A DNA stretch of 64,000 nucleotides from Ostreococcus lucimarinus (taxonomy: Eukaryota). How positions within the stretch are numbered: the stretch's first letter is position 1; each line of letters opens with the position of its first letter. The translations under genes and the position numbers were made by a program. A model generated the notes under the pieces. It saw only the letters and a program-made list of their open reading frames with translations, did no database searches and was not told the origin of the DNA. Below are positions 26,392 through 60,431 of this stretch, piece by piece. The stretch lies in assembly GCA_000092065.1 (NCBI GenBank), contig CP000598.1, one strand, 5' to 3'.

Positions 26392-26578
26392 CTTGCTTTG
26401 GTTAAGCGTTTTAAGGCGTTACTAAATTTAGAATCTTCTAAAAATAGAACGATTCGCTCTAAAAATAGAACGACTCTTTACAAACCGATCGAGGCGCAAA
26501 AGGCACTCTTCCGATTGACACTAATCGTAGGTCCACGCTAGCGTGCTGCACGTCGTCGCAGATGGCAGAATCGTACGA

Positions 26579-30292: not shown

Positions 30293-30321
30293 CTATTTTT
30301 TTCGAAAACACGAGTACTACT

Positions 30322-32599: not shown

Positions 32600-32800
32600 G
32601 TCGACGCGAAAGAAGCGCGCCGTGCGCGATCGCGCGGCGTCGAACGCATAGCGGACGTACGACGCGCGCTTCGGCGGCGCGCGCGATGATCAGAGACGTC
32701 GCGCGCTTCGGCGACGCGCGTGCGGGCGCGGTGGCAGGAGCGGAGAAGAACGGCGCCACCGTCCGTCAGATTCGCAAAGACTGCGTACCGTGAACGCACG

Positions 32801-32880
32801 TCGCGATTTCCCGCGCCGCGCGTCGCGCGTCGTCGGGTGCTGTGGACCGACCCCGCGGTTTTGTGCGAAATGAAACGCGA
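32801..32880. repeat. Direct repeat of about 78 bp, recurring at 60352-60431, 27.55 kb away.
   Basis: The sequence gtcgcg(a/g)tttcccgcgccgcgcgtcgcgcgtcgtcgggtgctg...accgaccccgcggttttgtgcgaaatgaaa is near-identical at both sites. The flanks are unrelated. Confidence 0.6.
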
Positions 32881-33252
32881 ATGAAATCGGCGCGGACGTG
32901 ATTCGGATGCGGTGGCGTTACGTTCTGTTCCGATCCGCGTGCGCACGCACTTTTGTCACGTACTCACGCACATTTGTGTGGCATGTGATTACTCATGTGT
33001 GAAAAAAACGTTCCGAACCGTTCCGCACGGTTGTTCGAGGGTCGTCATCGGCGGAGAACGACGACAAAATTAAGGGGTATAAAGATTAGCGAATATGTAA
33101 ATGTAAGGAGTAACCATGGGCTCCAACGTTAATCGCCTCGAAATGCTTTCCGTTATCGATGACTTGCATGAAAAGTATCAACATTTACACCATAAATCGA
33201 AGCTCTAAACCCTAAACATAGTTTTCGTTTTTTTTGCTCAGGTTTCGCCAGG

Positions 33253-33366
33253 CACGTGTCAAAAATTGGCAAATTCTGAAACTCGTTTTTTGCTAGGGTT
33301 TAGCTTTAACGTCTCCGAACGCTCCGACGGGGAGGCGATGACGCCGCCGCCACTCGTCGACGCCTC
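33253..33366 (+). promoter_or_regulatory. Conserved upstream module (copy 1 of 4), containing ctagggtttagc and lying upstream of the giant DUF285 gene.
   Basis: It aligns with 46951-47065, 50010-50176 and 51756-51946. A CCCTAAA x2 interstitial telomere-like motif sits just upstream at 33196-33212. Confidence 0.4.
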
Positions 33367-33838
33367 CGTCCGCGGTCGTTCGCGTCGACATAGTTCAAGT
33401 GGTACCCTTGGACGACGGGCCCACCCGTGCGCACCCACGGGTGGGTGAAGTGCGTTTCCGTGGCGCGCCGTCGCCGTTCGGTCCTTCGCGGGCGACCGTA
33501 GCGCAACCGGGCGATCTCCGTGCGGGCGGCGCGACGCGACGCCGGTGCACGCATCGCAAGGGGCACACGCCGGGGGCACGGCGCCATTCGCGGCGAACGG
33601 TACGCCACCACACACGTTCGCAGCGGCGGACGGCATGCGTGGGCGGGTTGGAGGCAACGTTGTATTGAAAATTGCGTACAGCACTGTTGGGCAGACCGGC
33701 TCGTTGAAGCAGCATACGGATCTACGAGCGAAAGCATTTTCTCCGTCGAATATCATAGGGAAACAGCATGATAGATCAGTTGCACGGTCGAATCACAGTG
33801 CTCGAGCATCCTTCAGTTATCATACGTTGAAGGTGAAA

Positions 33839-36800
33839 ATGATTTTAACACTCGTATCCATCGCTATATCCATGGGAAATACACTTGCGAGTGGTAGCAT
33901 AGCGCTCACCGACGCAACGTTTTCTACTGCGATCGCTAGTTGCCTCGAGGAGGCAGCGTCGGATGGCCTGTGTACTTCTTACGGCTTTGCAAGTGGGTTC
34001 GGAGCGATGCCTGATTGGGACACGGGCAATGTCACGAACATGGGTAGTGCATTTTCGTCTAAATACTACTTCAATGCATCCATCGGGAACTGGAACACGT
34101 CGCGAGTGACGTATATGGGTTCCATGTTTCAGTCTGCGTATTCGTTTAATCAGGACATCGGGAACTGGAACACGTCGCAGGTGACGAACATGTATTCCAT
34201 GTTTCAGTCTGCGAATTCGTTTAATCAGGACATCGGGAACTGGAACACGGCGCGAGTGACGTATATGGGTTCCATGTTTCAGTATGCATCTTCGTTTGAT
34301 CAGGACATCGGGGGCTGGAACACGTCGCAGGTGACGAACATGTATTCCATGTTTCAGTATGCGTCTTCGTTTGATCAGGATATCGGGAACTGGAACACGT
34401 CGCGAGTGACGTATATGTATTCCATGTTTCAGGGCGCATCTGCGTTTGATCAGGACATCGGGGGCTGGAACACGTCGCGAGTGACCAATATGGGTTCCAT
34501 GTTTCAGTATGCATCTTCGTTTGATCAGGACATCACAAACTGGAACACGTCGCGAGTGACCAATATGGGTTCCATGTTTCAGTATGCATCTTCGTTTGAT
34601 CAGGACATCACAAACTGGAACACGGCGCGAGTAACGTACATGACCAACATTTTCCAAAACGCGACGGCGTTTCAGGCGAAATATACATGTTCGACCGTTC
34701 AATCTGGACCCATCGCATCGTGTTCGCAGTGCGTTGCAAACTGTGCCGCTTGTAGTAACACTGCGTCGGGTGTTTGTAGTGTTTGCATGACTGGGTACAC
34801 ATTAGACGGAGGAATGTGTGCGGCACCCGCTGCGGCGCTCACCGACGCAACGTTTTCTACTGCGATCGCTAGTTGCCTCGAGGAGGCAGCGTCGGATGGC
34901 CTGTGTACTTCTTACGGCTTTGCAAGTGGGTTCGGAGCGATGCCTGATTGGGACACGGGCAATGTCACGAACATGGGTAGTGCATTTTCGTCTAAATACT
35001 ACTTCAATGCATCCATCGGGAACTGGAACACGTCGCGAGTGACGTATATGGGTTCCATGTTTCAGTCTGCGTATTCGTTTAATCAGGACATCGGGAACTG
35101 GAACACGTCGCAGGTGACGAACATGTATTCCATGTTTCAGTCTGCGAATTCGTTTAATCAGGACATCGGGAACTGGAACACGGCGCGAGTGACGTATATG
35201 GGTTCCATGTTTCAGTATGCATCTTCGTTTGATCAGGACATCGGGGGCTGGAACACGTCGCAGGTGACGAACATGTATTCCATGTTTCAGTATGCGTCTT
35301 CGTTTGATCAGGATATCGGGAACTGGAACACGTCGCGAGTGACGTATATGTATTCCATGTTTCAGGGCGCATCTGCGTTTGATCAGGACATCGGGGGCTG
35401 GAACACGTCGCGAGTGACCAATATGGGTTCCATGTTTCAGTATGCATCTTCGTTTGATCAGGACATCACAAACTGGAACACGTCGCGAGTGACCAATATG
35501 GGTTCCATGTTTCAGTATGCATCTTCGTTTGATCAGGACATCACAAACTGGAACACGGCGCGAGTAACGTACATGACCAACATTTTCCAAAACGCGACGG
35601 CGTTTCAGGCGAAATATACATGTTCGACCGTTCAATCTGGACCCATCGCATCGTGTCGATCGGGGTCACCATTTCAGAATTCGACCGAGTTGAAGCTTGC
35701 GGTCGACAGCTGTTTACTCGCGGATCCAACAGGAAATTGTGATTGCAGAAGTTCTCTGGTCGACTGCCGGGCGGCGAGCGGCGATTCAATATCGAAATGG
35801 GATACACGCTTCGTAACGAATATGAGCTCCTTGTTTGCAGGATCAGATCAATTTAACGCAGATTTAGGTGCTTGGAACACAAGTGCCGTTACTTCGATGT
35901 CGCACATGTTTCATGGAGCCGCTGCGTTCAACAAAGACATTAGTGGTACGTATAATGCGAATATCTTCGCGTGGGACGTGAGCGGCGTGACGGACATGAC
36001 TCGAATGTTCGAAGGCGCTAATAGTTTCGCTCAGGACATCAGCTCGTGGAACGTGGTGAACGTCGCGAGCATGGACAGTATGTTTTCGGGCGCAAACGCG
36101 TTCAACGCGCCCATCGGCAGTTGGAACACAGACGGCGTGACAAACATGTTTCAGATGTTCCACTCAGCACATGTGTTCGATCAACCAATCGGAAGCTGGA
36201 ACACGGAACGGGTGACGAGCATGCAGTGCATGTTCATGTATGCGCGTGAATTCAATCAGGATATCAGCTCCTGGAACACGGTCAACGTGGTAAATATGTG
36301 GGATATGTTTAATAGTGCGGATGCGTTCAACCAGAACATTGGGTTATGGAACACAGAGGAGGTGACGGATATGAGATACATGTTCTATAACGCGGGTGCG
36401 TTCAACCAGCCCATAGGGTCGTGGAACACCGCCAATGTCACGACCATGCGATCTATGTTTCAGGGCGCATCTGCGTTTAATCAGGACATCGGAAACTGGA
36501 ACACGACTTCTGTCACGGACATGTACAGCATGTTTGGTAGCGCGACGGCGTTCAATCAGAACATCACGGGATGGCACACGCCGAATACTGGTATTACTTG
36601 CGATTCATCGCAAACGGCGTGTGGTGATACAGGGTGTTTTGACATCGGTAATTGTGCTGCTGCGATGTTTTCCGGTGCGACAGCTTGGTTAGCGAGGTAT
36701 GCTCGCATGGATGGGAATGCGTCGAGCACCGATGGACCTCCGTCTCAGTGGGTCGGCCCGACACCATTTTTGAGTCGAGACGCTTTAGTCGCGGCGGTTG

Positions 36801-39800
36801 ATAATTGCTTGACCGAGGACGAGACGGGAAGTTGCGATTGCTCTGATTACGACGTCGATTGTGGCGCCGCCGTAAAGCTGCCGATCACGGAATGGGACGT
36901 GAGCCTCATCGTGGATATGAACGAGCTATTTAAGGCTCGAGCAGCTTTCAATCAACCGGTTGGTGTTTGGAACACTAGTAGCGTGACGGATATGAGCGGC
37001 ATGTTTGAGAGCGCATCCGCGTTTAACCAGCCCGTTGGTAACTGGAACACGGGTAGTGTGACGGACATGAGCGGCATGTTTGAGAGCGCATCCGCGTTTA
37101 ACCAGCCCATTGGTAACTGGGCCACGGGCAGTGTGGCGGATATGAGCGGGATGTTTGAGAGCGCATCTGAATTCAATCAGAATATTAGTAGCTGGTCAGT
37201 CGCTTCTGTGGTGAACATGCAATCCATGTTTTCCTCTGCTTCATCCTTCGAGCAAGACATCACTGGATGGATTTCAACTAGTGTCACGACGGACATGGCG
37301 ACGGACATGTTTCTCTCTGCGACAGCTTGGCTGCGAACATTCGCACGCACAGATGGCGAAGACACCCCCCATGGTCCACCATCCGATTGGGGCGAACCGT
37401 GTGGCAATGGGTGGTACGATGAGAAAGTTCAGGGGGAGAAGGAGGATGACTTTTGTGAGCCAAAAGTGAACGGGATTGAAGTGAAAGGATGTGCAGATGA
37501 CTGCAAAGTAAAAACGAACTGGAAGTGCGACAATGTCGACTTGCTACGCCCCGGTGATGACTTCGACAGCTACAATTGTACGTGCGACAACCCGGTGGGC
37601 ACGTATGCATCACCTAATCTTGATAATGATTGTGCTCGCACAGATTGCGTTTATGTCGAACGGTGTCTCGCTAACGGCCTAGGCTGTGCGCCCGGTGCCG
37701 GTGGAATGTGGGACGTGGGACGTGGAACGTGGGACGCGGTGAACGCATGCGGCAAGTGCTTGAGGGCCGCTGATATTGCCGAGCTCCCACTCAACGAACG
37801 AAGTAGGCACAACAAGGCTGGCTATTACAAGACTGGGCAGACGTGCACGGCTTGTCCTGCGACATCAGCCGCGGGACTTTTCGCTGCGGCTGCGGTTGTC
37901 GTCGTCCTCGCTTTTTGTGGTTTCAAAGCCTCTCAATTGATGGGCGCTCAAGCGACGAACAATTTGAAGAAAATTGTCGAGTCGCTGCAGTTCTTCTCTC
38001 TTTCGCTCAGTATGAGTATCAAGTGGCCTGGGCCCGTACTCAATCTCGGTAAATATTTGGAAGCTTTCACGTTCAGCATTGAGTTTCTACGACCCCAATG
38101 CGTCGCTGCGGGGCTGGATTGGCTCAATATATTTTTGTCCTCGGTGTTTGTCGTTCCCGCTCTCATCTTCATAATCATCGTCGTGAACAATAGACGGGCG
38201 AGGCACCGTTACAAAACAACGGTGCGCGCGATCGACAGTGAACGACACGAGGATGGCGAAACGGTCTACTGGATCGAGAAACCAGGGTTCCTGTGGGGTA
38301 CGCGGAGAGCTTACGAGTCCAAGGGCGGAGATAAGATTGTTCGTGAGTTGCAGCGCCAGTATCGGTTTCGAGCCGCGCTTCGATCTTTCGGCGTACTGTC
38401 ACTGACCATCCTGTACCTTCCCATCGTGCGTATGTGCCTTCAGTCATACGATTGCATAAAGATAGACGGCGTGGATGGGCTTCGATTGGAGCATGACATA
38501 GATATCCTCTGTGAAAGCGAAGGGCACGTGATCATCCAGGCCGCCGCCGCGGTGATGTTGGCCATTGTCGGTATCGGCATGCCAATTTACGTCGTTATGC
38601 AAGTTCGTAAGATCCGTTTGAGTGGTAAACTGGATGATCCGCAGACTATCGACTCGTATGGTCCGTTCTACGACGTCTACCGGCGCGAGGAGCTCACACA
38701 TGATCACAAATTGGAGATTGCGAGGATTCGACAAACCGCGGTCGAGTCGTCCTCATTTCGACGAGGCGAAGGCACGAGCGACGAACGTCCTTTCGATGCA
38801 GCAACTGATGATATTGCAGAAGAAATCGCAAATGAAGTCAGGGTCGACACGGAAGAAGATTCAAGCGACGTCGATCGTGTTGACGTCGAGGACGATAGTG
38901 GCACTCCACCACCTCAGAAAGTTTCATCCGGTCTCGGTAAGCTCGCTCGGGCGTTAACGATGACGAAGTCTGCTTTAGGCCGGACGACGTCAGCGAAAGC
39001 GCGCGAACGGGCACATCGAATGCACTGGAAGGACAGGTTCGCGCTTCACTACCTGGCCGTTGAACTAGTGCAGAAGAGTTGCGTCATTTTGACGACGTCT
39101 CCGATAGTGGCCGAAACCGCGGTGAGCGGTTGGGCTCTGGTTGTCGTACACTGGTTTACCGGCGCCTTCGTCTACGTGTGTCAGCCTTGGCGCATCATGA
39201 CGCTCGGCTTCGGCAAATACAAGGTGCGAAATTGCTTGAACAAAGTCGAGTCCTTGGCTGGATTTTTGCAGGGCGTGGGACCGTTCTTGGCAATGATCTT
39301 CCCTGTTCAGAGAAACGAGTTCGGTGAGGTGAAGCAAACTGTGACACTCTCAGCCATAACTGTCCTGCTGACCATCATAATCACCGGGCTGCTTTCTATT
39401 CGTATCATTGTTTTCGTCGGCGAACGCGTCGCCGTCAAACGAAAGAAGATGGATATCGACAAGGATCCCGAGAAATGCATGCAAAATGTTCACAAACAAC
39501 TGGTCAAGCTCGCAACCAACAGAGCGATTGTGAGCATGTTTGCTTTCAAGGCAGATTTCGACATTAAGCGCCGTAAAGCACGCGCGAGGCTGGAAGATAC
39601 TCGCCAAGCGATGTTATCGCGCATCGATATCTTGAAGTCACAACAGACCGACGAGGACCATTCCGATAAAATTACCGCGTTGTACGAAGTGGCGAATGAA
39701 ATGGCACACATCGTGAATACGATCGTACCCCAAGCACCGCCAACAGGTCCAAACGCAGAAGGGTGTATCGAATTGCTGGATGAACAACTGGCATCAATTC

Positions 39801-41368
39801 TCAAGGACGTCGACGTCCGAGCGCAGGCGAACGCGTTAGACGCTCCGAATTCTGCGGCGGTACATATCGTGATGAAGGTCCACGCGTTCGATACAATCAT
39901 ATGTCGACTTGACGAACATTTGCTCGAATTCGCGGCGGCAGAACGTGTGAGTGAGCTCGCCGAGCTGGGTCGAAGACACGCTGAATTACGACATACGCGA
40001 CGTTGTGTCGCGATAGGTTTCGGCGACGCAGAGCTTCGAGCTACTTTCGATGCGCTAAGATCGTGCATCGAGGCACTCCGCCATGCCGTTGAGAACGACG
40101 ACTTCGAAGCTGTATTCACAACTTTCAATGGTGGGAAGGAGATCATTGATTCTCACTTACGATGGTGTCGGGATCAATGTGAATTGTTCAAGAGCGCCGA
40201 GGACGAGCACCCCGATTTCCTCGAGGACGAGCCTCCACTGACGACCGAGTTTTTCAAGGCGACAGTCAAGGTGATACAATCCCATGAAAAGCAACTGTCT
40301 AAATTTAAATCGGAATGTATTCGTAACTGGCCCCCGCTTTTCAAGAACTTTGGCCGCGTCAAGTACATACAAGGCTTTGCTGAGCAACTTCAGAATCAAC
40401 TCCATCTCGATCTCAATGAAAGCACGCCGGAGGAGGCCAAGGCTGTTTTCGATCAGGTGTTGGCCTTCACAGATGGCTTCGCGCTTTGGTGCGGCGATTT
40501 AGTGGCACAGGTCGAAGGCTCAGATGTCTTCATCTTGTTTGAGCCAATCGCCCGCGCGATGGTGGAAAGCTTGAAAGCCATCAGAGCAGACGCTGAGTCG
40601 CAAAGTGCACTCGCGAGGCAAGCATTGAGTACGATAGATTATGTGGTGACGCAACGGGCGTTGGCCGCAACGACGCGGTCGGGCTTGCAGACAGCACTCG
40701 CGGATGGTACGTCTGCGCTTGAAGACCAGCTCGCCGCAGAAATTGCAGACATGGACGCTGCGAAGATTTCTCGAGAGACTACTTTCGAGACCGAAAAGAT
40801 GCGCACCGAGGAAGCTTTGAATACATTAGAGCAAGAGTTGGACGGTAGGCGAGCGGTTTTAGAGGACGACATTCGATCGCAACAGGACACTATCGCGCGG
40901 CTACAAAACTTGAAACGGGAAGAGGCCGCGGCATCGAGCTCTATAAACCCGTTGAAATGGGAGCGTTTCAGTCGAAGCACTGAGCTCGCCGAAGCTGTAA
41001 GTGCACTCCGTATGAGCAAACAAAACTTGAAGAATGAAGAGCTTGCAAATGAGAAGGCCCGCGGGGATGCGCGTAAGGCGGTTCATTCGTTGGAACGGGG
41101 CCTGAAAAAGGACCTGGTCGAATGTGACGTCCGAGCAAAGAAAATCCGAGACGATGTGGCAAAGGAGCTGAAGAAACAAACTATGGATGCTCAGAGGAAG
41201 ACACCCGAAGATGCTAAAGCCCATAAGGCTAGTCTGGCTTCCAGGCGCGCGGTGTTCCAGCAACAACGCGCCGCCGCTAAACTCATCGCGAGCGAAAGTA
41301 GAGAAGCTACGCGAATTCAAGCACAGCTTGCATACTACATGCGAAATTTAAAGGCGCGCGAATCGTGA
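33839..41368 (+). CDS. Giant (about 2500 aa) type I transmembrane protein with the following layout:
- signal peptide ([19 protein letters not shown]);
- about 40 DUF285 (PF03382, 'Mycoplasma lipoprotein'-type, ~26 aa) repeats in four blocks;
- Cys-rich modules;
- a TM/multi-TM region;
- a long cytoplasmic coiled-coil domain that is shared with the gene at 51947-53832.
   Basis: The repeat unit is FQ(Y/S)[14 protein letters not shown](R/Q)VT(N/Y)M(G/Y)SMF. The hydrophobic stretch [17 protein letters not shown] is at about 37.87 kb. The first ATG in frame with a signal peptide is at 33839. Confidence 0.75.
33902..35767 (+). repeat. Perfect in-frame tandem duplication: two units of 933 bp (311 aa). 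Bases 33902-34723 are identical to 34835-35656, and each unit encodes 10 DUF285 repeats.
   Basis: Read directly. The antisense ORFs at 33845-34702 and 34802-35635 translate identically over 277 aa. Confidence 0.8.
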
Positions 41369-41702
41369 TATAACGGTCGACTACGAGGAATACACGCATA
41401 GTCGAAACATGAGCACCCTGTCGCAGAAGGAGCTGAGTTTCCGCTTCGTTACGGATGAGATTGTGCGAGAAGACATGCCACATTCAAATTCGGGGCGATG
41501 GCTCACAAATCAGGCAAGAGAAGACAGGTGCACGTGCAAACTCTCAGCGGAACGAGTTGGTCGTCTCGAAGATCTCGGTGTTTGGTGAGACCAAGCCGAC
41601 GCACAGGAGGAGCACTTCGATGCCTGGAGGTACAGAAGATGTAACTCATCTTAAGCGTACGACTATTCAGACCTTGGGGGTTCCGCTTAAGATTTCTTCG
41701 GA

Positions 41703-42020
41703 ATGGAATCTCTGAACGCAAGGCGTGGATGTACATTAAACCATGAACGAGGCGGGCCACGGTTCGATTTTTTGGATTACAAGTGTAGGTCTACTTTTAC
41801 GTTTCGTGGACTCTGCTTGAGTCGGCCGATGTCACCATGTCAGTCAGGTGCTTCGAGTGCACTAGAGACGTGACCGCCCATACACAGGACGTCGAGCTCG
41901 GCGTGCCTGATTTCACGACTCGGCGACCATGGTTTGAAACCGAAATGACCATCGGCTTCAGGCCCAGGCGCGGCCGCAATGCTACTTTAAACTTAATATT
42001 TTTTTTTTGAAAAAAGAGTA
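41703..42020. repeat. Dispersed repeat of about 310 bp, with a second copy at 48395-48703. It ends in a T10/A6 tract and is flanked by taagat(t/c)tcttc(a/g)gaa. It is absent from the otherwise homologous position at ~54130.
   Basis: The two copies are about 93% identical over ~300 bp. The site is empty in the paralogous segment. Confidence 0.45.
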
Positions 42021-42227
42021 GTAAGAGTAATAAAAATAAACTTTTTTTTGTTTGAGTTGGGGCACCCCAACATGATAAAACCGCACATCGCGGCGAGCCG
42101 CGCGACGACGATCACTTCGGTCACATTTCCAGTCAGTGATTCTCGTCGTGTGATTCATCGTGTTTGACGTCGACGTTGATGTACCACATGTAAGATCTCT
42201 TCAGAACCAATCGTGTGAGTGAAGTGT

Positions 42228-42725
42228 TCAGGCCAAGTCGCGTAACTCATCTAGCGTAAATTGATACTTGTCGAGACTGCGCTTTGAAGGCAGCGTGCCA
42301 CGCGCTCGAGCATTCTTGAGGCACGTCTTACGCAGTATTCTTTTCGCGTGCTGCTTGTAATAATTGAGTTGTCTGTAGTTACCATCGCCGCCGTCACGCT
42401 TCGGCGTATATTGGGCTCTGCTGTAGGCTTGACTCTCGTCCACGTTCTCGTGACACGCGTGTTTCTGGCTGCGTCCAGCAGCTCGGGAGTTGAATAAGCC
42501 GTCGCGCTTCTCTCTCATGTATGCACTTTTACGTTGATGGAGCTCTCCAGCTGGAATGTCCTTTTCGAGAACTCTCACGTCCGCGTCGCCAAACGTGAAG
42601 ATTGGATGTCGTGCGTATTTATGCGAGGCAAGGCGCGCTCTGAGCGAACCTGTCGTCGATCCGATGTACGTTTTGTCACATTTCGCATTATCGCTAAACA
42701 TTTCGTACACGCACCCCGTAGGCAT
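42228..42725 (-). CDS. Standalone GIY-YIG family nuclease (homing-endonuclease-like), 165 aa, copy A.
   Basis: GCVYEMFSDNAKCDKTYIGSTTGSLRARLASHKY gives GIY-(11)-YIG, then Arg, then His. The catalytic Glu/Asn context MREKRDGLFNS is present, and there is a basic C-terminal tail. The ATG was verified. Confidence 0.7.
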   Translation of the reverse strand: MPTGCVYEMFSDNAKCDKTYIGSTTGSLRARLASHKYARHPIFTFGDADVRVLEKDIPAGELHQRKSAYMREKRDGLFNSRAAGRSQKHACHENVDESQAYSRAQYTPKRDGGDGNYRQLNYYKQHAKRILRKTCLKNARARGTLPSKRSLDKYQFTLDELRDLA

Positions 42726-43150
42726 TTGTCCTGGTTACCTATCCATCCCTAAGAAAATATTGTTGCCTCCTCCTGCGGTTTGCAGTCACATTCGAGAGAC
42801 CATAGGTACTCGTGTCGCTGCGTGGGGTGCAAGGTCCGGGGTGTAGATATCGAACCGCCTGATTTCACACCTGGACGTTCGTGATCCGACGAGACCTGAC
42901 GAAATGACGAACTTGTTTTGTCGTCCCCAAATTCGTCAGCCCGTCGTTCGGTCACACTTTGTGTGTACCAATGATGAAAATGACGAAATGTTAAAATATT
43001 TTAATGTTTATTTTTATTTTAGATCTATGACAAGCAACAGTGTAGACCTTTATGAAAACAGTTCGTCATTCGTCATTTCGTCAGGATCCAAACCATGGTC
43101 TTTTCGGTGTCTTGTTGAGTCTTCATATTGCAAATGTACGAATCACAAAA

Positions 43151-43669
43151 TTAGTATGAACACCAGACGACCGCCGGCGCGAGCTCCGTCTCCCCCGTGT
43201 ACCCATTGTTCTTCAGCCACTCGAAGCACCCGTCGCGGTCAATTTCCCAATAGACGCCCTTCTCGTCCCTACCTTGCCTCAGGTGGTCCTCTTCCATTGG
43301 GATCCTGTGGCCCTTTTCCTTCTTGAAGAAGTCCTTGAGCTTATTGCCGACCTTCGTCGCGCTATCTTGTCCACGCGCAGCCGCTGGCAACCACGTCTGG
43401 TATTCGATGAAGATGTCACTGTTGCGGATTTTATTTCCAACCCACTTCTCAGGGAATTCAACAGTGACGCAATGCTCAAACCATCGAGTGAACTTGGGCA
43501 TGCAGCCACGCTTCATTTCCGAATACGCGTCGGTCGTAGGTCTCGTGCGCTCCACATGATAACCGGTACGGAGAAGTTTATATTTATTAATTAAAGACTC
43601 GCGCGTGTTGGCGCTAAATGATTTTATTGCTGCCGAGAGACTCAAGTTTGGCCGTCGTTTGAGTCGCAT
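43151..43669 (-). CDS. Hypothetical 172-aa basic protein encoded next to the GIY-YIG gene (copy A).
   Basis: The first ATG is at 43669 (the tracked start is TTG). I recognise no family. It has motifs such as KFTRWFEHCV and GVYWEIDRDG. Confidence 0.45.
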   Translation of the reverse strand: MRLKRRPNLSLSAAIKSFSANTRESLINKYKLLRTGYHVERTRPTTDAYSEMKRGCMPKFTRWFEHCVTVEFPEKWVGNKIRNSDIFIEYQTWLPAAARGQDSATKVGNKLKDFFKKEKGHRIPMEEDHLRQGRDEKGVYWEIDRDGCFEWLKNNGYTGETELAPAVVWCSY

Positions 43670-43746
43670 CGATGGGTCGCGCCCGCCGATATAACGCCGG
43701 CGTTTCGGACACGATCTTGAAAACAAGCACTGGTTGACTTGATTGA

Positions 43747-46272: not shown

Positions 46273-46409
46273 CGTCGCGCGTTGAAATGCGGCGACGACA
46301 AGTGGCGACGGTGACGCGATCTGCCCGCACGCAATTCAATTCCTTCGGGTCACCTTATCTTTTGGAGCCCCCGGAAACGCGACTGTTTACCAATACGATG
46401 GTTCCCGGG

Positions 46410-46950: not shown

Positions 46951-47065
46951 CAGAAAGCTTCAAAAATCGTGCCTTTTCTAAAACTCAATTTTCGCTAGGG
47001 TTTAGCGCCCCCGGTTTTCCGAGGATGCGGGCAGATCTCGCCGTCGGCGCCACTCGTCGACGACC
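46951..47065 (+). promoter_or_regulatory. Conserved upstream module (copy 2 of 4), ending at the ATG of the gene at 47066.
   Basis: It reads ...ctagggtttagcgcccccggttttccgaggatgcgggcagatctcgccgtcggcgccactcgtcgacgacc|ATG. Confidence 0.45.
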
Positions 47066-48181
47066 ATGGCCTCCCCGTCGCTCGATGCCGTGCGTTGGAG
47101 CGAATACCGGGCGCTCATGCAAGCGTGGGAAGCGTTTAACCCACACAGGGAGCTCCTGCGTCGGTTTTTACAGAAGCAATCGCACACGGAGCAGTGCCCA
47201 CCCGGCGTCCCGTACGTACCAGATCTGCCGGAGCCGGAGTACTTCGCCGTGAAGAGACGAATCGAGGCCGGGGAAACCGTTCCATGTCCTGGATTCTTAC
47301 GCGAACGCGACAACCGGCGCAATCAATGCCGCTGCGGGGCTCCACTCAGAGTTGATGACACTGGCAATATCTCCTGCACTTCCAAAATTCCCCGTCATGA
47401 GAACTATGGTCCTGTACCTCGTTGCTGTTGCTGGGCCGAAGAAGAGCACGCTCGTAACCAACGACATGACATGCCGCCGTATATTTTAAGGCCGCCACCC
47501 ATAGTGTCCCCCCCTCAAGTACCACCGTCGTCTCAAGTGCTCTTGAGCTTTTTGGAGGGGGTCAGGCCAAGCATGAACGCCAACTACCTGCGATGCGTTC
47601 AAGACATAGACGAAGAGCTCGCTCGTCTGAATGAGCAGCTTGCGGACAACAGCATTTCAACGACGAGGCGTGAAGCGATTCAACAGCATATAGTGAGCGA
47701 ACGCTCCAAACTTGAGGCCAAAGACACACAGTTACAAGATTTTTTTAACACGACGACCGCACTGGCAGAATCCGTGCACACGTTCGAGCACAGAGTGGCA
47801 GAGAAATACCAGAAAGCTGTGGATGCATACATTAAAGCGCAACTGGATGAAGTGGTCGTACCTCCGGATAGTAGAGGGAATCCAAAGTTTAAGGACTCAG
47901 TCGATGGCATCGACAGAGAGTTGGCCAAGTTAGAATCAGAAAATGGAGGCATCTCCAACGACAGCGCTCGCGCTCGCGTCGCCTCCAAACGTAAGAGCGT
48001 GGAAGAGTGTGAATCAGAGCACAAGCGCCTCAAAACCACTTCGGTTGAGTACAACTTGTCTATTTTGAAAGGGAGTTTGGAAAAAGACAAATCTATGTCT
48101 GCTGAAGACAAAAGACGCTGGGAATGCGTCATAAACGCCGTCGGGTTGTTACGAGCAAACGATGCACCAAGAACGCCGTAG
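47066..48181 (+). CDS. Hypothetical coiled-coil protein, family member A (371 aa).
   Basis: The ATG was verified. It is paralogous to the gene at 50177-51220 (YLRCVQDIDEELARLNEQLADNSISTTRREAIQQHI versus YLRTVERIDKNIQVLEAQLQDENISETRRSVIPQHI). Confidence 0.55.
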   Translation: MASPSLDAVRWSEYRALMQAWEAFNPHRELLRRFLQKQSHTEQCPPGVPYVPDLPEPEYFAVKRRIEAGETVPCPGFLRERDNRRNQCRCGAPLRVDDTGNISCTSKIPRHENYGPVPRCCCWAEEEHARNQRHDMPPYILRPPPIVSPPQVPPSSQVLLSFLEGVRPSMNANYLRCVQDIDEELARLNEQLADNSISTTRREAIQQHIVSERSKLEAKDTQLQDFFNTTTALAESVHTFEHRVAEKYQKAVDAYIKAQLDEVVVPPDSRGNPKFKDSVDGIDRELAKLESENGGISNDSARARVASKRKSVEECESEHKRLKTTSVEYNLSILKGSLEKDKSMSAEDKRRWECVINAVGLLRANDAPRTP

Positions 48182-48756
48182 CAACAGTATGGGCAAACAG
48201 TTAGGCGTTCTCCATGGCCTCCATTCGCGCGACCAGAGCGTTGACGCGCTCTTCGAGTTCGTCGATGCGGCGTTGTTTAGCGTCGTTCGCGCTCTCTACA
48301 TCGGCGCGACATAGAATAACGATAATCTATATCTGCTATATCTGCTTAATATTCTGCTTAAGATTTCGGCACCCTCGCTTAAGATCTCTTCAGAATGGAA
48401 TCTCTGAATGCAAGGCGTGGATGTACATTAAACCATGAACGGACCACGGTTCGATTTTTTTTATTACAAGTGTAGGTCTACTTTTACGTTTGGTGGACTC
48501 CGCTTGAGTCGGCCGATGTCACCGTGTCAGGTGTTCAGAGTGCACTAGAGACGTGACCGCCGATACACAGGGCGTCGAGCTCGGCGTGCCTGATTTCACG
48601 ACTCGGCGACCATGATTTGAAACCGAAATGACCATCGGCTTCAGGCCCAGGCGCGGCCGCAATGCTACTTTAAACTTAATATTTTTTTTTTGAAAAAAGA
48701 GTACTATAGTACTTTTGGTGTTTAAACGTGTTCGTGATATGATTGATAGTCCGTGA

Positions 48757-49407: not shown

Positions 49408-50009
49408 CTTTGGCGTGGGTTTATCTCGCAAAAGGATTTCAGCGAGGCTTGAGGTGCGCCGCAAAGTGAGGCCCGGAGATCCGGGGATCCTCCGCAGCCC
49501 CGCGGGCGTGTGCCTGGCGTGTGCCCTTCGCGGTCGGTCGGACGAGGGGCCCGTTGGCGCCCCGCGGGTTTGTGTGCCAGCCCCAGGGTTTAGGGGTTAG
49601 GATCGGACATATGGAACCTCACTAATTAGCCGCATGACCTCATACATTAAGTTATTTATATCTAGTCATCGCGCGAAATGGCGTGGGTAAATTACCGTAC
49701 TAGGGTTTCCGTAAATAAAATACGTACCGAAAATAATGAATTAATTTACACGGGCGTGCCACGACGTCGTCGCACGCGCTCGTGAAAATTTGGTTGACGG
49801 CTTGGATTCGAGATTTTGGGGAGGTAAAATTCGGCCAAATCCCGCGCATATATTACTGTACAGTAATCAAAGCGCGGGATGTGGCCAAAGTCTTTGGGTC
49901 ACAGCCCCTCACTTTGGGGGCTGCAGTGACGGGATGTGGGAATTTTACCGTATGGGTCGTGACTCGTCGTTGGGGGTACTACTATGAAATCCCATAATTC
50001 TATTGTACA

Positions 50010-50176
50010 TAGGGTTTAGAAATTAGGGTTTAGACGTCAAAAATCGCTCGGGTTCCATCAGAAACGTGTCAAAAACGGGCCTTTTCTGAAACTCGATTTT
50101 TGCTAGGGTTTAGCGCCCCCGGTTTTCCGAGGATGCGGGCAGAGCTCGCCGTCGGAGCCACTCGTCGCCGCACACG
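50010..50176 (+). promoter_or_regulatory. Conserved upstream module (copy 3 of 4), including tagggtttagaaattagggtttagac.
   Basis: It aligns with the other three copies and ends at the ATG at 50177. Confidence 0.45.
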
Positions 50177-51755: not shown

Positions 51756-51946
51756 ATCTAGGGTTTAGAAATTAGGGTTTAGACATCAAAAATCGCCGAG
51801 GTTCCATCAGAAAGTTGTCAAAAACGTGGCTTTTCTAAAACTCGATTTTTACTAGGGTTTAGCGACCTCCGGTTTTTCGGCGGAGGAATTGCGTGCGGGC
51901 AGATCTCGTCGTTGTCGCCACTCGTCGACGCGGCGATGCTCTCAAC
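51756..51946 (+). promoter_or_regulatory. Conserved upstream module (copy 4 of 4).
   Basis: It aligns with the other copies. Confidence 0.45.
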
Positions 51947-53832: not shown

Positions 53833-54161
53833 ATCCGCCAACCGAACGCCAGAATTGTTATGTTACGCTCGATGATAACATGGTTGGGTTGGGGCAAATG
53901 CCCACAAATCAGCGTCAGGCGAAGGAAGACAGGTGCGTCTGCAAATTCCAAATTCTCGGCAGAACAAGTTCGTCGACTGGAAGAGCTCGGCCGGTTTGGA
54001 GACAAACCCGCCATATTGGAAGAGCACTTCGCTGCCTGAGGGTACAGAAGATGTAGCTAATCAGAAGCGTGCGACCGTTAAGACCTTGGGGATTCGACTC
54101 GCTTAAGATTTCGGCACCCTCGCTTAAGATTTCTCCAGAACGAATCGTGTGAGTGAAGTGG

Positions 54162-54659
54162 TCAAGCCAAGCCACGCAACTCATCTACCGTAAATTGATA
54201 CTTGTCGAGACTGCGCTTCGAAGGCAGCGTGCCGCGCGCTCGAGCATTCTTGAGGCACGTCTTACGCAGTATTCTTTTCGCTTGCTGCTTGTAATAACTG
54301 AGTTGTCTGTAGTTACCATCGCCGCCGACCCGCTTCGGCGTATATTGAGCTCTGCTGTAGGCCGGACTCCCGTCCACGTTCTCGTGGCACGCGTGTTTCT
54401 GGCTGCGTCCAGCAACTCGGGAGTTGAATAAGCCGTCGCGCTTCTCTCTCATGTAGGCACTTTTACGTTGATGGAGCTCTCCAGCTGGAATGTCCTTTTC
54501 GAGAACTCTCACGTCCGCGTCGCCAAACTTGAAGATTGGATGTCGTGCGTATTTATGCGAGGCAAGGCGCGCTCTGAGCGAACCTGTCGTCGATCCGATG
54601 TACGTCTTGTTACATTTCGCATTATCGCTAAACATTTCGTACACGCATCCCGACGGCAT
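54162..54659 (-). CDS. GIY-YIG nuclease, copy B.
   Basis: Near-identical to copy A; the ATG was verified. Confidence 0.7.
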   Translation of the reverse strand: MPSGCVYEMFSDNAKCNKTYIGSTTGSLRARLASHKYARHPIFKFGDADVRVLEKDIPAGELHQRKSAYMREKRDGLFNSRVAGRSQKHACHENVDGSPAYSRAQYTPKRVGGDGNYRQLSYYKQQAKRILRKTCLKNARARGTLPSKRSLDKYQFTVDELRGLA

Positions 54660-55092
54660 TTGTCCTGATTACCTATCCATCCCTAAGAAAATATTGTTGC
54701 CAAAAGTGCTCCTCCTGTGGTTTGCAGTCACATTCGAGAGACCATAGGTACTCGTGTCGCTGCGTGGGGTGCAAGGTCCGGGGTGTAGATATCGAACCGC
54801 CTGATTTCACACCTGGACGTTCGTGATCCGACGAGACCTGACGAAATGACGAACTTGTTTTGTCGTCCCCAAATTCGTCAGCCCGTCGTTCGGTCACACT
54901 TTGTGTGTACCAATGATGAAAATGACGAAATGTTAAAATATTTTAATGTTTATTTTTATTTTAGATCTATGACAAGCAACAGTGTAGACCTTTATGAAAA
55001 CAGTTCGTCATTCGTCATTTCGTCAGGATCCAAACCATGGTCTTTTCGGTGTCTTGTTGAGTCTTCATATTGCAAATGTACGAATCACAAAA

Positions 55093-55611
55093 TTAGTATG
55101 AACACCAGACGACCGCCGGCGCGAGCTCCGTCTCCCCCGTGTACCCATTGTTCTTCAGCCACTCGAAGCACCCGTCGCGGTCAATTTCCCAATAGACGCC
55201 CTTCTCGTCCCTACCTTGCCTCAGGTGGTCCTCTTCCATTGGGATCCTGTGGCCCTTTTCCTTCTTGAAGAAGTCCTTGAGCTTATTGCCGACCTTCGTC
55301 GCGCTATCTTGGCCACGCGCAGCCGCTGGCAACCACGCCTGGTATTCGATGAAGATGTCACTGTTGCGGATTTTATTTCCAACCCACTTCTCAGGGAATT
55401 CAACAGTGACGCAATGCTCAAACCATCGAGTGAACTTGGGCATGCATCCACGCTTCATTTCCGAATACGCGTCGGTCGTAGGTCTCGTGCGCTCCACATG
55501 ATAACCGGTACGGAGAAGTTTATATTTATTAATTAAAGACTCGCGCGTGTTGGCGCTAAATGATTTTATTGCTGCCGAGAGACTCAAGTTTGGCCGTCGT
55601 TTGAGTCGCAT
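55093..55611 (-). CDS. Hypothetical 172-aa protein, copy B.
   Basis: Identical organisation to copy A. Confidence 0.45.
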   Translation of the reverse strand: MRLKRRPNLSLSAAIKSFSANTRESLINKYKLLRTGYHVERTRPTTDAYSEMKRGCMPKFTRWFEHCVTVEFPEKWVGNKIRNSDIFIEYQAWLPAAARGQDSATKVGNKLKDFFKKEKGHRIPMEEDHLRQGRDEKGVYWEIDRDGCFEWLKNNGYTGETELAPAVVWCSY

Positions 55612-55688
55612 CGATGGGTCGCGCCCGCCGATATAACGCCGGCGTTTCGGACACGATCTTGAAAACAAGCACTGGTTGACTTGATTGA

Positions 55689-58220
55689 TTAGGAAACCTT
55701 ATCCGTGCCTTTTACGCTGAGCCCGGTCATGGACGGCTTCGTCGGCATGGTGAACGCGGTGTAGTCCGCCGCCGTGGGCACCGTGATGCTCGTGTCGTAC
55801 GACATCCCGGAGCACGCCGACGCATCGGCGGGAGCAAGCATTTCGACACCACTTTCGAGTTTCAAGACGTACCGGTCGCCAGTCGATGGTTGTTTGAACG
55901 TGGTGCCATCGGGGATCAGGACATCCGGACGGCGATGGTAACCATTGTTGTCGTCGCACTCCTCGTTGCCATACTGGTCGACCTCGGGCGCCGCGCGCGA
56001 ACCAGTCATCGGATTGAAGCAAATGAACGGCGCGTCGCCCAACCAACCGCCTTCGTAACGCACGTTGAGATTCACCCCGGAGTAGTCGGTACCGGATGGA
56101 GAGCGCAGCAACACGGCGTCCGTGGGTATCTTGCCTTGAAGCTGGAGAGGCGCATCCATGAACTTCTTTGACGCGGAGTCCGAAGGATCTTCGAGCCACG
56201 CCATGCCCTCCCAATTGCTTGAGCTCCACTCGTAGTGCACATCCAATTTGTTGGGTTCCTCGCAAACGTCGGTAGTGGCGGTGCAACTCAAAGTGTCGAG
56301 GTTCGCAGGTGTAGCTTCGAAGAGAACCATATGAACTTCTCCCGAGTCAAAGAATGAGTTGGTTGGGTCCATTACGACTTCAGCGCCGAGGGTGCCGGAA
56401 ACGTCTTCCTTCAACGAGCCGGTATCTTTGTCGAAGACGTACTTTTTATAAGTGCTTCGAGCGTCGTTGTATCCGTTCGGCGAGCCGTAGAACTGGCTGT
56501 CGTGACTGCTCGCACTCGATAGCTTCGTCTGGTCGATACACCGCTCGCCGCACGTGAGTGCGAGGTGGCTGCTGAGCGACCCAGGGGGGACGGTTTGCGC
56601 GTCAGACACTTTGAAGTGCGTCAGGTTAAGCAAACTCGCAGAGCCTCGGCCGAAGATGCTTCCCCAGCAGCGTATGATTTGGTTGTCAATGTCAGCCATC
56701 GTGAGCGCACGCGGAGTCGTGATTGAGTTCGTGTTCAGCGATCCACCGTTCCAAGTTCGCTTCGACGACAACACGAGTGCGTTCGCGTCGGAGTCATACC
56801 TGAACTTGACCTCAACTTCTGCAGCGTTAGTGTCATCCCAGAACCAGCCTGTGATCGTCGCCCCTTGGTAGTCGCTTGCGCTTCGCACCGTCGCCGTGAA
56901 CTTGTACAACACCCCGCGTGAGACTTTGAGCCTCTTGTTCACGTTCAGTATCGGATCATCCCAATCGACAATTTCCTCTACTACGTTCCCGTCGGTGAAC
57001 GCGGTTTGAGCGATAGTCTTCTCGGCGGTACTGAGCGCGGTGTCGGAAATGTAGTCGTAATCGGAAATGTAGAGATTGCCCGGATAGTGCAGATCAGCAT
57101 TATACGTCTTGCCGTCGCTGCCTGTAGCCTGAAGATGCACGTAGCTTTGAAGGTTCACCTTCGCCCCGTTGCTGTCGTACGCGCCGTAGCGCTCACCGAA
57201 GAACGATCTGTTCTCGAGTTCATCGCAGAATGACTGCCCGTACGCCTTCGTCTTGACGAGCGTAGCGGTAGTCACCAATTGACCCGCTTGTGTCGAACCA
57301 TTATCAAAGTCGATGGTCTGGAAAGAGGCCTTCGTGATGTCGTTTTCTGCGCGCGATTTAGCACCCGCGGTGAATGAATTGCTGCCTCGTGTCACCTCTT
57401 CCCACCACGTGACCCCGGTCGCCGTGCAATCCGAATCCGCGTCGGTGGTTTCGCACTCGCGACGAACCACACCTTTGATGCGTTGGGACGCGGTCGAGCC
57501 AGTCGGCGATTGGTACGTAAAGGTAAAGTTTTTCACCAAGATTTTGTCAGACTTGATGGCGACGTCATCGCGCTTGACGATCATTTCCGTGTCGATGTTC
57601 GGCATTTCTGGGGTATCGCTGAGGGCTACCCAGACGTTCGTCTTGAAATCACGGGTATCGCTCGCGTCGTCGATGTCTGGGCCCGTGGCGTTGACGACCC
57701 AACGGTACGTAACCTTACCCTTGATTCGGTCGCCGTCGCTGTTGTCACAGTGGAAAGGATCGATCTCAGCGATGTATGGGCCAGTGTTCAGGTTCGCCGT
57801 CCAGTTCACCGAGGCGACGTAGCAAAGAACCATGTTTGGTATCTGGAAAATTTCGGTACTTACAGCGTCGACGAACGTCTCCGCCGGCGGCGCCGTGGCG
57901 TAGTCGGACGTCGAAGAGAACGAAGACACTTCGAGAGGCGTCACCTCGACGAGCGAACGACCATCGATTCGAGACGAACCAGAAGACGTCGTCGAAACAC
58001 CCTCTGACGGGATCATGGTGACTTTACGCGGCGTCAACGCCGCCTTGAGCGCGTTCGTCTTCGCCGCGCCCGACAGCCCGCTGACGGTGGTCGGGGTCGG
58101 GGCCGGGGCCGGGGCCGGGGTCGCGTCGTCATCCCTGAGCCCGATGCCGAGGCCGGTGCCAAGGGCGACCACCACGGCGGCGACACCAACGATCGCGATC
58201 GCAACGCCACGTCTCACCAT
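55689..58220 (-). CDS. The same ~843-aa membrane-anchored protein, copy B.
   Basis: Identical apart from an extra APAP encoded by one more GGGGCC unit. Confidence 0.55.
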   Translation of the reverse strand: MVRRGVAIAIVGVAAVVVALGTGLGIGLRDDDATPAPAPAPTPTTVSGLSGAAKTNALKAALTPRKVTMIPSEGVSTTSSGSSRIDGRSLVEVTPLEVSSFSSTSDYATAPPAETFVDAVSTEIFQIPNMVLCYVASVNWTANLNTGPYIAEIDPFHCDNSDGDRIKGKVTYRWVVNATGPDIDDASDTRDFKTNVWVALSDTPEMPNIDTEMIVKRDDVAIKSDKILVKNFTFTYQSPTGSTASQRIKGVVRRECETTDADSDCTATGVTWWEEVTRGSNSFTAGAKSRAENDITKASFQTIDFDNGSTQAGQLVTTATLVKTKAYGQSFCDELENRSFFGERYGAYDSNGAKVNLQSYVHLQATGSDGKTYNADLHYPGNLYISDYDYISDTALSTAEKTIAQTAFTDGNVVEEIVDWDDPILNVNKRLKVSRGVLYKFTATVRSASDYQGATITGWFWDDTNAAEVEVKFRYDSDANALVLSSKRTWNGGSLNTNSITTPRALTMADIDNQIIRCWGSIFGRGSASLLNLTHFKVSDAQTVPPGSLSSHLALTCGERCIDQTKLSSASSHDSQFYGSPNGYNDARSTYKKYVFDKDTGSLKEDVSGTLGAEVVMDPTNSFFDSGEVHMVLFEATPANLDTLSCTATTDVCEEPNKLDVHYEWSSSNWEGMAWLEDPSDSASKKFMDAPLQLQGKIPTDAVLLRSPSGTDYSGVNLNVRYEGGWLGDAPFICFNPMTGSRAAPEVDQYGNEECDDNNGYHRRPDVLIPDGTTFKQPSTGDRYVLKLESGVEMLAPADASACSGMSYDTSITVPTAADYTAFTMPTKPSMTGLSVKGTDKVS

Positions 58221-59354
58221 CGTCGCGCGTTGAAATGCGGCGACGACAAGTGGCGACGGTGACGCGATCTGCCCGCACGCAATTCAATTCCTTCGGGTCA
58301 CCTTATCTTTTGGAGCCCCGGAGATGCGACTGTTTACCAATACGATGGTTCCCTTTTTTCGGTCGCGAAAGCGCGCGGTCGCCGGGTCAACCAACACCTT
58401 CATCTCCGGGGGGGATCGGAGATTGTTTTTTACGGTCGCGCGCGCGGTCGCCGCGGACGCCCCCGCCCTCGTCGACGCCGCGCTGACTGTCGCGCGCTGA
58501 CTGACACGCGCTGACCGACGCGCGCGCGATCGAACGCCGCGAGTGGGGAAAGGCGAACGCGCGACGTCGTCGCGCGCGCCCCCGCGCGTCCCGGACCGAA
58601 CCGCGCGTCGTCGTCGTCGCCGTCGCCGTCGCGCGCGTACGCTTCGGACCGCGAAAATCGTTTTTCGTCGCGGGGGGACTGCGGTGCGGGTCGTCTCACA
58701 CTTCGGGACGCCGACGATGGTGTCGTCCGGCGACGCCGACGTCGACGACGCGGTCGAACGACGCCATCGGCGCGGTCGCGGTCGCGCCGTTCGCGATCTT
58801 CTGCCGTCGTCCTCGGCGGCGCGCGCGAACACCGTCCCGCCGTTTGAAGCAACCGGTCGAGGCGCGCTCCCGAGGTGGTTTTGCAAGAGCTGTCGGAAAG
58901 CGCTCGACGTGTTTCGTGATTTCGACGGGGAGCTGAAGACGTGTCGACTGTGTTTGCGCGCGCGCAAGAAAGACGCGAAACGCAAACGCGCGCTACGGCG
59001 GGCGGACGCGAAAAGGTCGGGCGACGGCGACGGTAAAAAAGGCGCGGCTTCGTAGAGAAGCCGAACGCAGGGAACGACGACGAGTCGCGGATGCGCGCGA
59101 AACGATCGATCTTTGATTCGACACGCCTTCGGTATAGTAGTGTGTTTTGCTCTGTAGCCTCGCGTGTTGTAACTACCGTTGTACATTTACATCAATGCGT
59201 CGTCGCGTTCGCGGCGATTTTACGTCGTCGTTCGTTCGCGACGCTTCGTTGGACATGGCGCTTCGACACAGAAGAATCCGACGCGCGCACAGTCCGTGGT
59301 GTCGCGCGCACGTCATCGCACACGTCTCATTTCTTATTTCTCCGCTCCAACTCG

Positions 59355-59980
59355 CTATCCTTCTGTCATAAAGCACACCCGGTCCGCGTCCGGGACGACG
59401 TCCTTCTCGTACTCGACGTTCGCGCAGTACATGTGTATTCGAAACAGCGCGCACCCCGTGCCGCACATGCCCGCGTGCACGTGATCGCCTCGAAAAAATA
59501 CGACGGCGCCGTTCGGCACGGGCACGAAGTCCGTTGCCTTGGTCGCGTTCATGGGTATCGGCTTCGACACGATCATCGAGATCTGCTTATGGTCGGAACA
59601 CTTTCGACCGTCGAGATCCGTGTGCCAGTCTTGGCGCTTCGTCTTGCTCTCGCCCTTCGGGGAGTGGCAATAGATGACGCTCGCGCCGCGTCGGTCGCCG
59701 CTCTCCTTCAACCCGCTCAAGAGCCACCCCTTGCGCGACGCCCGCGCGCTTCAGCGCGGCGCCGCAGTACGGATGGAACCGACGCGAGGTCTCGGGCGCT
59801 TCCCCGCGCGCGTTCACGACGTGCGTCCAGCGACTCTTCGTCCACGCCCCGCCCTTCGCTTCGCGCGCGTCGGTCGAGGGTTGGCGTCGATGATTTCTCG
59901 ACGGATCGTCTTCATCCGTGCGTCCGTGAGGCACCGCTCGAACACGGCGTAGCGCTCTTTGGACGGATCGAACATGGCCG
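59355..59980 (-). pseudogene. Fe(II)/2-oxoglutarate dioxygenase-like (PhyH-like) gene interrupted by a frame break near 59720-59815. It may be an intron-containing gene or a pseudogene.
   Basis: The sequence WHTDLDG ... VVFFRGDHVHAG gives an H-x-D...H facial-triad-like pattern. The upstream segment ...MFDPSKERYAVFERCL lies in another frame. Confidence 0.3.
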
Positions 59981-60351
59981 CGCCGTGTGAGGTGCACTGT
60001 TTCCCCTTGATCTCCGCCGCGCTCGCTCCCGCCGCGCGCGCGTGTCCAGACCCACGGCGTACGCGAGACGGCGCGTCGTCGCCGCGCTCGTCGGCTTCCA
60101 CGCGTTCGGGAACCTGACGTGTTTGGGTAACCCACGAACGGCGCGCGCGGCGAGCGCCTCCAGGCGCGCGCGCCGCGCGGGAACTCTTCACCGTGCGCGC
60201 GTTTCCACTCGGCGAACACGCCGAGGGCGAGCGCGACTACGCGTCGACGGTGCGTTCCGCGAGTTCGCACCCGCGCCGGCGACGCCTGATCGTCTCGGCG
60301 CGCGATCGTCGCGGCATGGGACGCGTTGGAGGGCGGGGGTCGGGACGCGTC

Positions 60352-60431
60352 GCGGTTTCCCGCGCCGCGCGTCGCGCGTCGTCGGGTGCTGCGGGGACCG
60401 ACCCCGCGGTTTTGTGCGAAATGAAATCGTT
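60352..60431. repeat. Second copy of the ~78-bp direct repeat.
   Basis: See 32801-32880. Confidence 0.6.

Follow-up and report, generated by a model that had tools for sequence, protein, structure and literature searches.

Small outlier chromosomes (SOCs) of the Mamiellales are hypervariable, with duplications, deletions, and translocations between strains, and have been linked to prasinovirus resistance (PMC5498103, PMC5082852, PMC13390643). The SOC of Ostreococcus lucimarinus is chromosome 18, with 149 kb, 53% GC, and 78 open reading frames (ORFs) (PMC3491373 Table 2). Here, we analyzed a stretch of 64 kb of this chromosome from strain CCE9901 (the window), four ORFs of which match predicted proteins of this strain exactly and in which a pair of near-identical 78-bp direct repeats (the 78-mer) brackets a segment of 27.5 kb. 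Results revealed that the 78-mer is part of a GC-rich module of ~2.4 kb and not an isolated att-like site, and we consider it, with a probability of about 0.6, to be a low-copy repeat that serves as a substrate for homologous recombination in an array of gene cassettes.

Among the systems described previously, chromosome 19 of O. tauri and the "accordion" repeats of O. mediterraneus resemble this locus in their lower GC content and species-specific genes, in the large duplications, deletions, and rearrangements between strains, and in repeated units that apparently drive copy-number change (PMC5498103, PMC5082852, PMC13390643). However, those studies deal with tandem gene repeats of 1.8 to 2.5 kb and with events of >10 kb in other species, whereas the O. 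lucimarinus case concerns a spacer module that is dispersed and precedes unrelated variable genes, with nucleotide-level junctions from natural populations; no account of this module was found in the cited Ostreococcus SOC studies. Low-copy repeats that recombine by nonallelic homologous recombination or single-strand annealing share several features with the locus, namely, direct high-identity paralogous stretches within larger collinear duplications, a population variant without exactly the bracketed segment that keeps one repeat copy, and a gene-conversion-like shuffling of variants between copies, although the tract shared here is only 78 bp, while classical low-copy repeats are kilobases long. 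The att sites of Campbell-type integration likewise present attL-, attR-, attB-, and attP-like junctions around a sharply bounded common core, but here no recombinase was found, the "attP" form lies in tandem arrays within the chromosome, and the "element" is incoherent. In trypanosomes, 70-bp repeats upstream of the variant surface glycoprotein (VSG) cassettes supply the homology for cassette exchange. By analogy, the conserved noncoding repeat of the present locus would precede a set of interchangeable genes that encode variable surface-type proteins, but the sequences of the two systems are unrelated, and no sign of programmed switching, an expression site, or induced breaks was seen here.

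Self-BLAST of the window aligned the two 78-mers with 94.9% identity over 79 columns (E = 7e-28), so that the repeat pair of the original prediction is real, with its coordinates corrected by 2 to 5 nt (Table 1). The two copies are in direct orientation, 27,549 bp apart from start to start, with a GC content of 67 to 71%, and they differ by one A/G substitution and an indel (TG versus CGGG). Their halves (left 36 nt, right 32 nt) are exact in both copies and had no further occurrence within the window when 3 mismatches were allowed; none of 100 shuffles matched the halves, and none was expected to by chance. Flank alignment revealed that the directly adjoining sequences are unrelated and that the limits of homology are sharp to the nucleotide, with the same two edges in every contig carrying the 78-mer. 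The repeat contained no tRNA and no Rfam match, and its predicted fold was not significant on either strand (z-scores of -0.1 to -1.1), so that an attachment site in a tRNA or structured RNA was rejected. A coding exon was also rejected: the ORFs reading through the repeat (32353-32946 on the - strand and a 199-aa ORF in the environmental contig L026) are Arg-rich junk, and the 77- and 79-nt length variants would shift the frame.

The module around the 78-mer consists, in order, of a block of ~1 kb (the a block), a middle part of 1.2 kb (Q-middle), the 78-mer, and a right flank of ~175 bp (R1, constant part R1c), and its GC content is 65 to 71%, compared with 54% for the window. The a block and its counterpart, the a-prime block, are 95 to 98% identical, collinear with the 78-mers, and differ by a 183-nt indel. 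Thus, the claim that the repeats have unrelated flanks holds for the immediate flanks but overlooked a collinear repeat of ~1 kb to the left of each copy, 3.2 kb and 1.2 kb away, respectively. The sequences that separate these blocks from the 78-mers (copy 1, 3,157 nt; copy 2, 1,189 nt) are unrelated, and a search for hidden homology between 29642-32798 and 59159-60347 by sensitive blastn and tblastx gave GC-rich noise only. Terminal repeats of the module itself were also sought, with short GC-rich matches at chance level as the only outcome. Q-middle adjoins the 78-mer directly in every haplotype carrying it and is probably noncoding, judging from substitutions without codon periodicity, haplotype indels of 1, 2, 16, and 48 nt, and ORFs that are Arg-rich junk. 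On the right side, six R1 copies from different haplotypes agree over ~175 to 182 nt and then pass into differing TATA-containing sequences, while R1 is common to the window and contigs L013, L021, and L048 as far as 33181. The + strand genes that follow R1 also differ: the reference has a gene for a DUF285 protein of 2,607 aa, L045 one for a protein of 1,580 aa, and L025 an ORF of 747 aa. The intact arrangement occurs in L045, a 24.7-kb JGI contig in which the contiguous series of a block, Q-middle, 78-mer, and R1 is present twice, 8.5 kb apart, with a different gene downstream of each copy.

The a blocks additionally carry a small, basic ORF on the + strand (29017-29538, 173 aa; 58717-59055, 112 aa), and the 183-nt indel between the copies leaves its reading frame intact. 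The C terminus of this ORF, FCKSCRKALDVFRDFDGELKTCRLCLRVRKK, with a CxxC...CxxC pattern, is similar to zinc finger 2 of SBP domains, with a sub-threshold match to Pfam SBP (E = 0.0085), and the ORF may be a real gene within the repeated module.

To place the repeat in natural populations, a 22-mer from it was scanned against 241 million metagenome records, and contigs with neighboring ORFs were fetched from ENA, Logan, and JGI assemblies, a sampling that is biased towards contigs containing the 78-mer. The scan detected 13 contigs, all of this locus family, and no viral contig in IMG/VR matched a 32-mer, indicating that the 78-mer is not a common dispersed repeat. With the two left flanks designated L1 and L2 and the two right flanks R1 and R2 (Table 1), all four flank combinations were found, always with identical edges: L2-78-R2 in the window and 21 contigs; L2-78-R1 in L013, L026, and L046 and twice in L045; L1-78-R1 in the window, L013, L021, and L048; and L1-78-R2 in L026 only. 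This last contig (10,367 bp, from ENA sample ERZ27295410, assembled with MEGAHIT at k = 141) is derived from a marine metagenome and provides the empty site that the original prediction had proposed to look for. It follows the window from 64000 back to 60348 with 99.0% identity and then runs directly into 32875-32154 with 98.9% identity, so that a single 78-mer joins the outer flanks and the whole 27.5-kb bracketed interval is absent. Because a k of 141 exceeds the repeat length, the junctions of L026 must be present in k-mers of read length. The same contig has another 78-mer at a distance of 2.3 kb, which lies in an intact L2-78-R1 context, with the initial 87 nt of R1 next to it and then a gene with FG-GAP repeats (gene X, see below). 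The independent assemblies L013 and L048 have the same left part as L026 but an L1-78-R1 junction that runs on to 33181. A search for a second L1-78-R2 contig with the N-terminal part of gene X homologues gave partial matches only.

These arrangements suggest why the two copies of the reference have so little in common. The 78-mers would be paralogous copies of one short stretch of the spacer module, delimited by two independent rearrangement breakpoints that lie 78 bp apart in the module, L1/78 on the left and 78/R2 on the right. In module copy 1, the place of Q-middle is taken by a unit of 3.2 kb (the X unit), which comprises gene X (ORF 31079-32599) with its promoter and constant 5' part L1 and stops exactly at the left edge of the 78-mer. 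The break between the a block and the X unit falls at the same nucleotide as that between the a-prime block and Q-middle, and the breaks of the X unit and of Q-middle against the 78-mer coincide in the same way. Module copy 2 is cut after the last nucleotide of the 78-mer, where it adjoins R2, and this right edge would be the point at which the last module of the array meets the conserved side with the BCCT transporter gene. With its copies truncated on opposite sides, the reference strain would thereby have lost the intact module; what the copies still share is only the 78 bp and the a blocks, which would explain the unrelated appearance of the flanks. Gene X is itself variable. In the reference, the product of this - strand gene is a protein that is coiled-coil, Pro-rich, and Cys-rich; L1 is ~99% identical in L013, L021, L026, L046, and L048, and the remainder of the gene differs there, with FG-GAP repeats beyond the switch point at 32154 in L013, L026, L046, and L048 and DUF285 plus FG-GAP repeats in L014.

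In the favored explanation, the module would be repeated between variable genes on chromosome 18, mostly for secreted or repeat proteins, and homologous recombination between direct copies would remove or add everything between them, with unequal crossing-over, single-strand annealing after a break, and gene conversion as candidate routes. The simplest series would start from an ancestor with three 78-mers (L2-78-R1short, L1-78-R1, and L2-78-R2), in which recombination within the 78-mer deleted the segment between the last two copies and produced the arrangement of L026. We infer that the L026 junction arose in this way from a three-copy haplotype and that the mechanism was driven by homology; a terminal 78-mer copy identical to the T-type internal copies does exist in nature, in L049. 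Moreover, length variants inside the 78-mer are shared across flank contexts, with T present in all four combinations and CGG in both L2-78-R2 and L1-78-R1. Copies of Q-middle do not cluster by flank context either: that of L045 unit 2, in the R1 context, is 1.0% distant from that of L047, in the R2 context, and 2.2% distant from that of L045 unit 1. Both patterns are signs of exchange (gene conversion) between copies. A high GC content like that of the module is expected under GC-biased gene conversion, a process described in O. tauri (PMC5498103). Homologous recombination is likewise on record for O. tauri and has been put forward to explain SOC rearrangement (PMC5498103, PMC5082852, PMC13390643). 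Of the three mechanisms offered by the original prediction, the breakpoints of a duplication come closest to this explanation.

Several points weigh against recombination between low-copy repeats. The tract of 78 bp is short for efficient crossing-over across 27.5 kb, and the L1-78-R2 junction rests on one metagenome contig at the assembly level. Given that the environmental contigs are short pieces from mixed populations, the long-range linkage of junctions may be mosaic and the two 78-mers of L026 may not share one molecule, and on these data the event may have been either a deletion or an insertion. In addition, several breakpoints lie close together around the 78-mer, within ~400 bp (right side, +15, +87, +175 to 182, and +306; left side, -3), which could point to a break-prone site or to template switching, although this clustering is perhaps partly an artefact of the sampling bias described above.

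Replication template switching, as in microhomology-mediated break-induced replication (MMBIR), fork stalling and template switching (FoSTeS), or chromoanagenesis-type repair, therefore remains a serious alternative for the origin of the edges, even if we rate it as unlikely overall. Under it, the copy 1 78-mer would be a short templated patch from the module, placed during a complex rearrangement at the junction between the gene X unit and R1, and the four flank combinations would record repeated switches at a break-prone site, not crossing-over. In line with such events, the edges are sharp, and the haplotypes together show at least six different breakpoints at no more than ~400 bp from the 78-mer. 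Earlier work on Ostreococcus SOCs has proposed events resembling chromoplexy or chromoanagenesis (PMC13390643), and a bioRxiv preprint (10.1101/2025.09.17.676765) is reported to do likewise. In L013 and L048, moreover, a direct duplication of 165 bp (the 78-mer with the initial 87 nt of R1) lies on either side of the unit corresponding to the X unit (X'), as is typical of replicative insertion. On the other hand, L2-78-R1 is intact in several haplotypes, so the 78-mer is native there and not a patch; neither microhomology nor junction insertions are evident at the edges; and the precise single-copy junction of L026, together with the shuffling of variants, is what homologous exchange predicts.

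Site-specific integration would make the interval a 27.5-kb element with the 78-mers as attL and attR, L1-78-R2 as attB, and L2-78-R1 as attP or a circle junction, and it does account for the existence of all four junction types with identical edges and for the empty site in L026. We nevertheless judge it very unlikely, considering the contents of the interval. Pfam scans of ORFs of ~140 aa and longer detected no integrase, recombinase, or transposase in it, whether a tyrosine or serine recombinase or a DDE transposase; the only integrase in the window belongs to a copia-like element at 21024-26757, outside the interval; and the large protein of the 4.2-kb cassettes (841 aa) is an orphan with no Pfam, PDB, or viral relative. 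The junction corresponding to attP, L2-78-R1, occurs within chromosomal arrays, twice on L045, where it is simply the intact chromosomal module. Furthermore, the interval is not one coherent unit, being absent piecewise and with other genes after R1 in L045 and L025. In L013, L021, and L048, the sequence 32154-33181 is followed by ~340 bp and then by 48705 onward, so that 33182-48704 is missing, with breakpoints unrelated to the 78-mer; in L020 and L023, the a block leads straight into Q-middle; 48705 and 29009 are further recurring breakpoints; and the a and a-prime blocks also bracket variation. The att-like junctions of an integrated element that the original prediction entertained are thus not borne out. 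A viral origin was rejected as well, given the lack of a 32-mer match in IMG/VR, of a viral relative of the 841-aa protein, and of matching phage records.

Terminal repeats of a large transposon or an LTR-type element, also suggested originally, are most improbable: direct repeats do bracket a gene-containing segment, but the 78-mer ends are CGTCGC...TGAAA and not TG...CA, neither a target site duplication (TSD) nor terminal inverted repeats nor an LTR structure was found, and gag/pol or transposase genes are lacking inside the interval. Finally, a chance match in GC-rich, low-complexity DNA or a reference assembly artefact, for which the CG-rich composition of the repeat could be invoked, is excluded as the source of the pair by the E value, by the shuffles, and by independent environmental assemblies that reproduce both reference junctions.

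Table 1. Features of the module, the bracketed interval, and its surroundings (positions in the window)
Feature	Position	Strand	Description
78-mer, copy 1	32799-32875	+	77 nt, "A" and "TG" variants; left flank L1, right flank R1
78-mer, copy 2	60348-60426	+	79 nt, "G" and "CGGG" variants; left flank L2 (Q-middle), right flank R2
a block	28654-29641		Left part of module copy 1; 988 nt, 65.5% GC; both edges sharp
a-prime block	58354-59158		Left part of module copy 2; 805 nt; begins, to the nucleotide, where copy 2 of the 4.2-kb cassette ends
X unit	29642-32798	-	Takes the place of Q-middle in module copy 1; stops exactly at the left edge of the 78-mer
L1	32154-32798		Constant 5' part of the gene X unit
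Q-middle (L2)	59159-60347		GC-rich (65.5%), probably noncoding middle of the module
R1c	32876-33050	+	Constant right flank of the module (R1 starts at 32876); upstream of TATA-like boxes of differing + strand genes
R2	60427-61262		Conserved; separates module copy 2 from the BCCT transporter gene
BCCT transporter gene	61263-63488	+	Pfam E = 3e-148
Bracketed interval	32876-60347		27,472 nt, 54% GC; composite of cassettes
Polymorphic sub-interval	33182-48704		DUF285 gene, cassette copy 1, and 371-aa gene
DUF285 gene	33839-41368	+	2,607 aa, Pfam E = 0; signal-peptide-like start at 33839
4.2-kb cassettes, copies 1 and 2	42191-46406, 54125-58353		Segmental duplication, 98.8% identical (self-BLAST)
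+ strand gene family	47066, 50177, 51893, 52822	+	

The bracketed interval holds the genes and cassettes listed in Table 1, with the a-prime block and Q-middle at its right end. Its DUF285 gene and both 4.2-kb cassettes were correctly recognized in the original prediction, but the GIY-YIG label given to the cassettes corresponds to a sub-threshold Pfam match of their 165-aa ORFs (E = 0.008, 16.9 bits, against a cutoff of 22.6). These ORFs have no PDB relative, and a simple GIY...YIG motif scan was empty, so that this identity was not adopted. Homologues of the large cassette protein (841/843 aa) were found only on Ostreococcus-like environmental contigs, none with a domain, and the exact protein is present on many metagenome contigs of ~3 kb, as expected for a repeated unit. 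Weaker similarity between the cassettes extends to the left as far as 41510 and 53915. Just to the right of cassette copy 1 lies a near-perfect palindrome of 120 nt (46663-46782), whose 60-nt arms are 88% complementary without a spacer, and a similar region occurs near 49481-49700.

Within the DUF285 gene, an 822-bp duplication (33902-34723 and 34835-35656, 100% identical) is superimposed on internal repeats with a 75-nt period, which suggests a very recent repeat expansion. A conserved element of ~69 nt occurs at 33236-33304, 46938-47006, 50046-50114, and 51795-51863, in each case just upstream of a + strand gene (the DUF285 gene, the 371-aa ORF, a 347-aa ORF, and an ARM-repeat ORF, respectively). 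It ends in CTAGGGTTTAGC, which is telomere-repeat or telo-box-like, and is probably a shared promoter or 5' untranslated region element.

On the right side of the locus, R2 contains a 265-aa ORF with an Arg-rich translation, which a 2-nt indel in environmental copies converts to 199-aa versions; the ORF is probably spurious or dispensable. Compared with the window at 59049-64000, contigs L017 and L024 have a BCCT gene that is 70 to 77% identical, while R2, the 78-mer, and Q-middle are 94 to 98% identical, and the switch in identity falls at about 61037-61273, shortly before the start of the BCCT gene. Such a contrast suggests either deeply diverged haplotypes with a homogenized module or a transfer of the module between lineages.

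The copia-like LTR retrotransposon mentioned above lies on the - strand and comprises a 1,310-aa pol ORF and a 392-aa gag-like ORF, with RVT_2 (E = 4e-45) and rve domains at 21214-25146. It is bounded by LTRs of 179 bp (TG...CA, 99.4% identical) and a 5-bp TSD (CACTT), and its clean empty site in L045 indicates a recent insertion polymorphism. Pieces of this element also adjoin R2 in L018. By contrast, the 78-mers of the same window lack every one of its hallmarks.

Taken together, the locus is a new and well-resolved case of repeat-mediated structural variation on a chromosome whose hypervariability was already known, and beyond its junction detail, it is an ordinary example of such variation. 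Although SOCs are thought to underlie rapid prasinovirus resistance, the sequences at which they rearrange have been poorly defined, and the locus provides nucleotide-level junctions from natural populations, together with a concrete repeated module where gene cassettes come and go. Together, these junctions and the module predict L1-R2 and L2-R1 junctions in cultures, for example after virus challenge, which can be tested by PCR. We infer that this shuffling would serve the diversity of surface proteins or virus resistance. A bolder and distinctly doubtful proposal is that the module is a dedicated boundary for cassette recombination, that is, a conserved homology block in front of interchangeable genes that encode secreted repeat proteins (DUF285, FG-GAP, and Recep_L-like). 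If this were true, the module would be a eukaryotic-alga analogue of the 70-bp repeats of the VSG cassette system, the initiating breaks might come from the neighboring GIY-YIG-like cassettes, and the cassettes for surface proteins on the "viral immunity" chromosome of Ostreococcus could be exchanged, lost, or multiplied.

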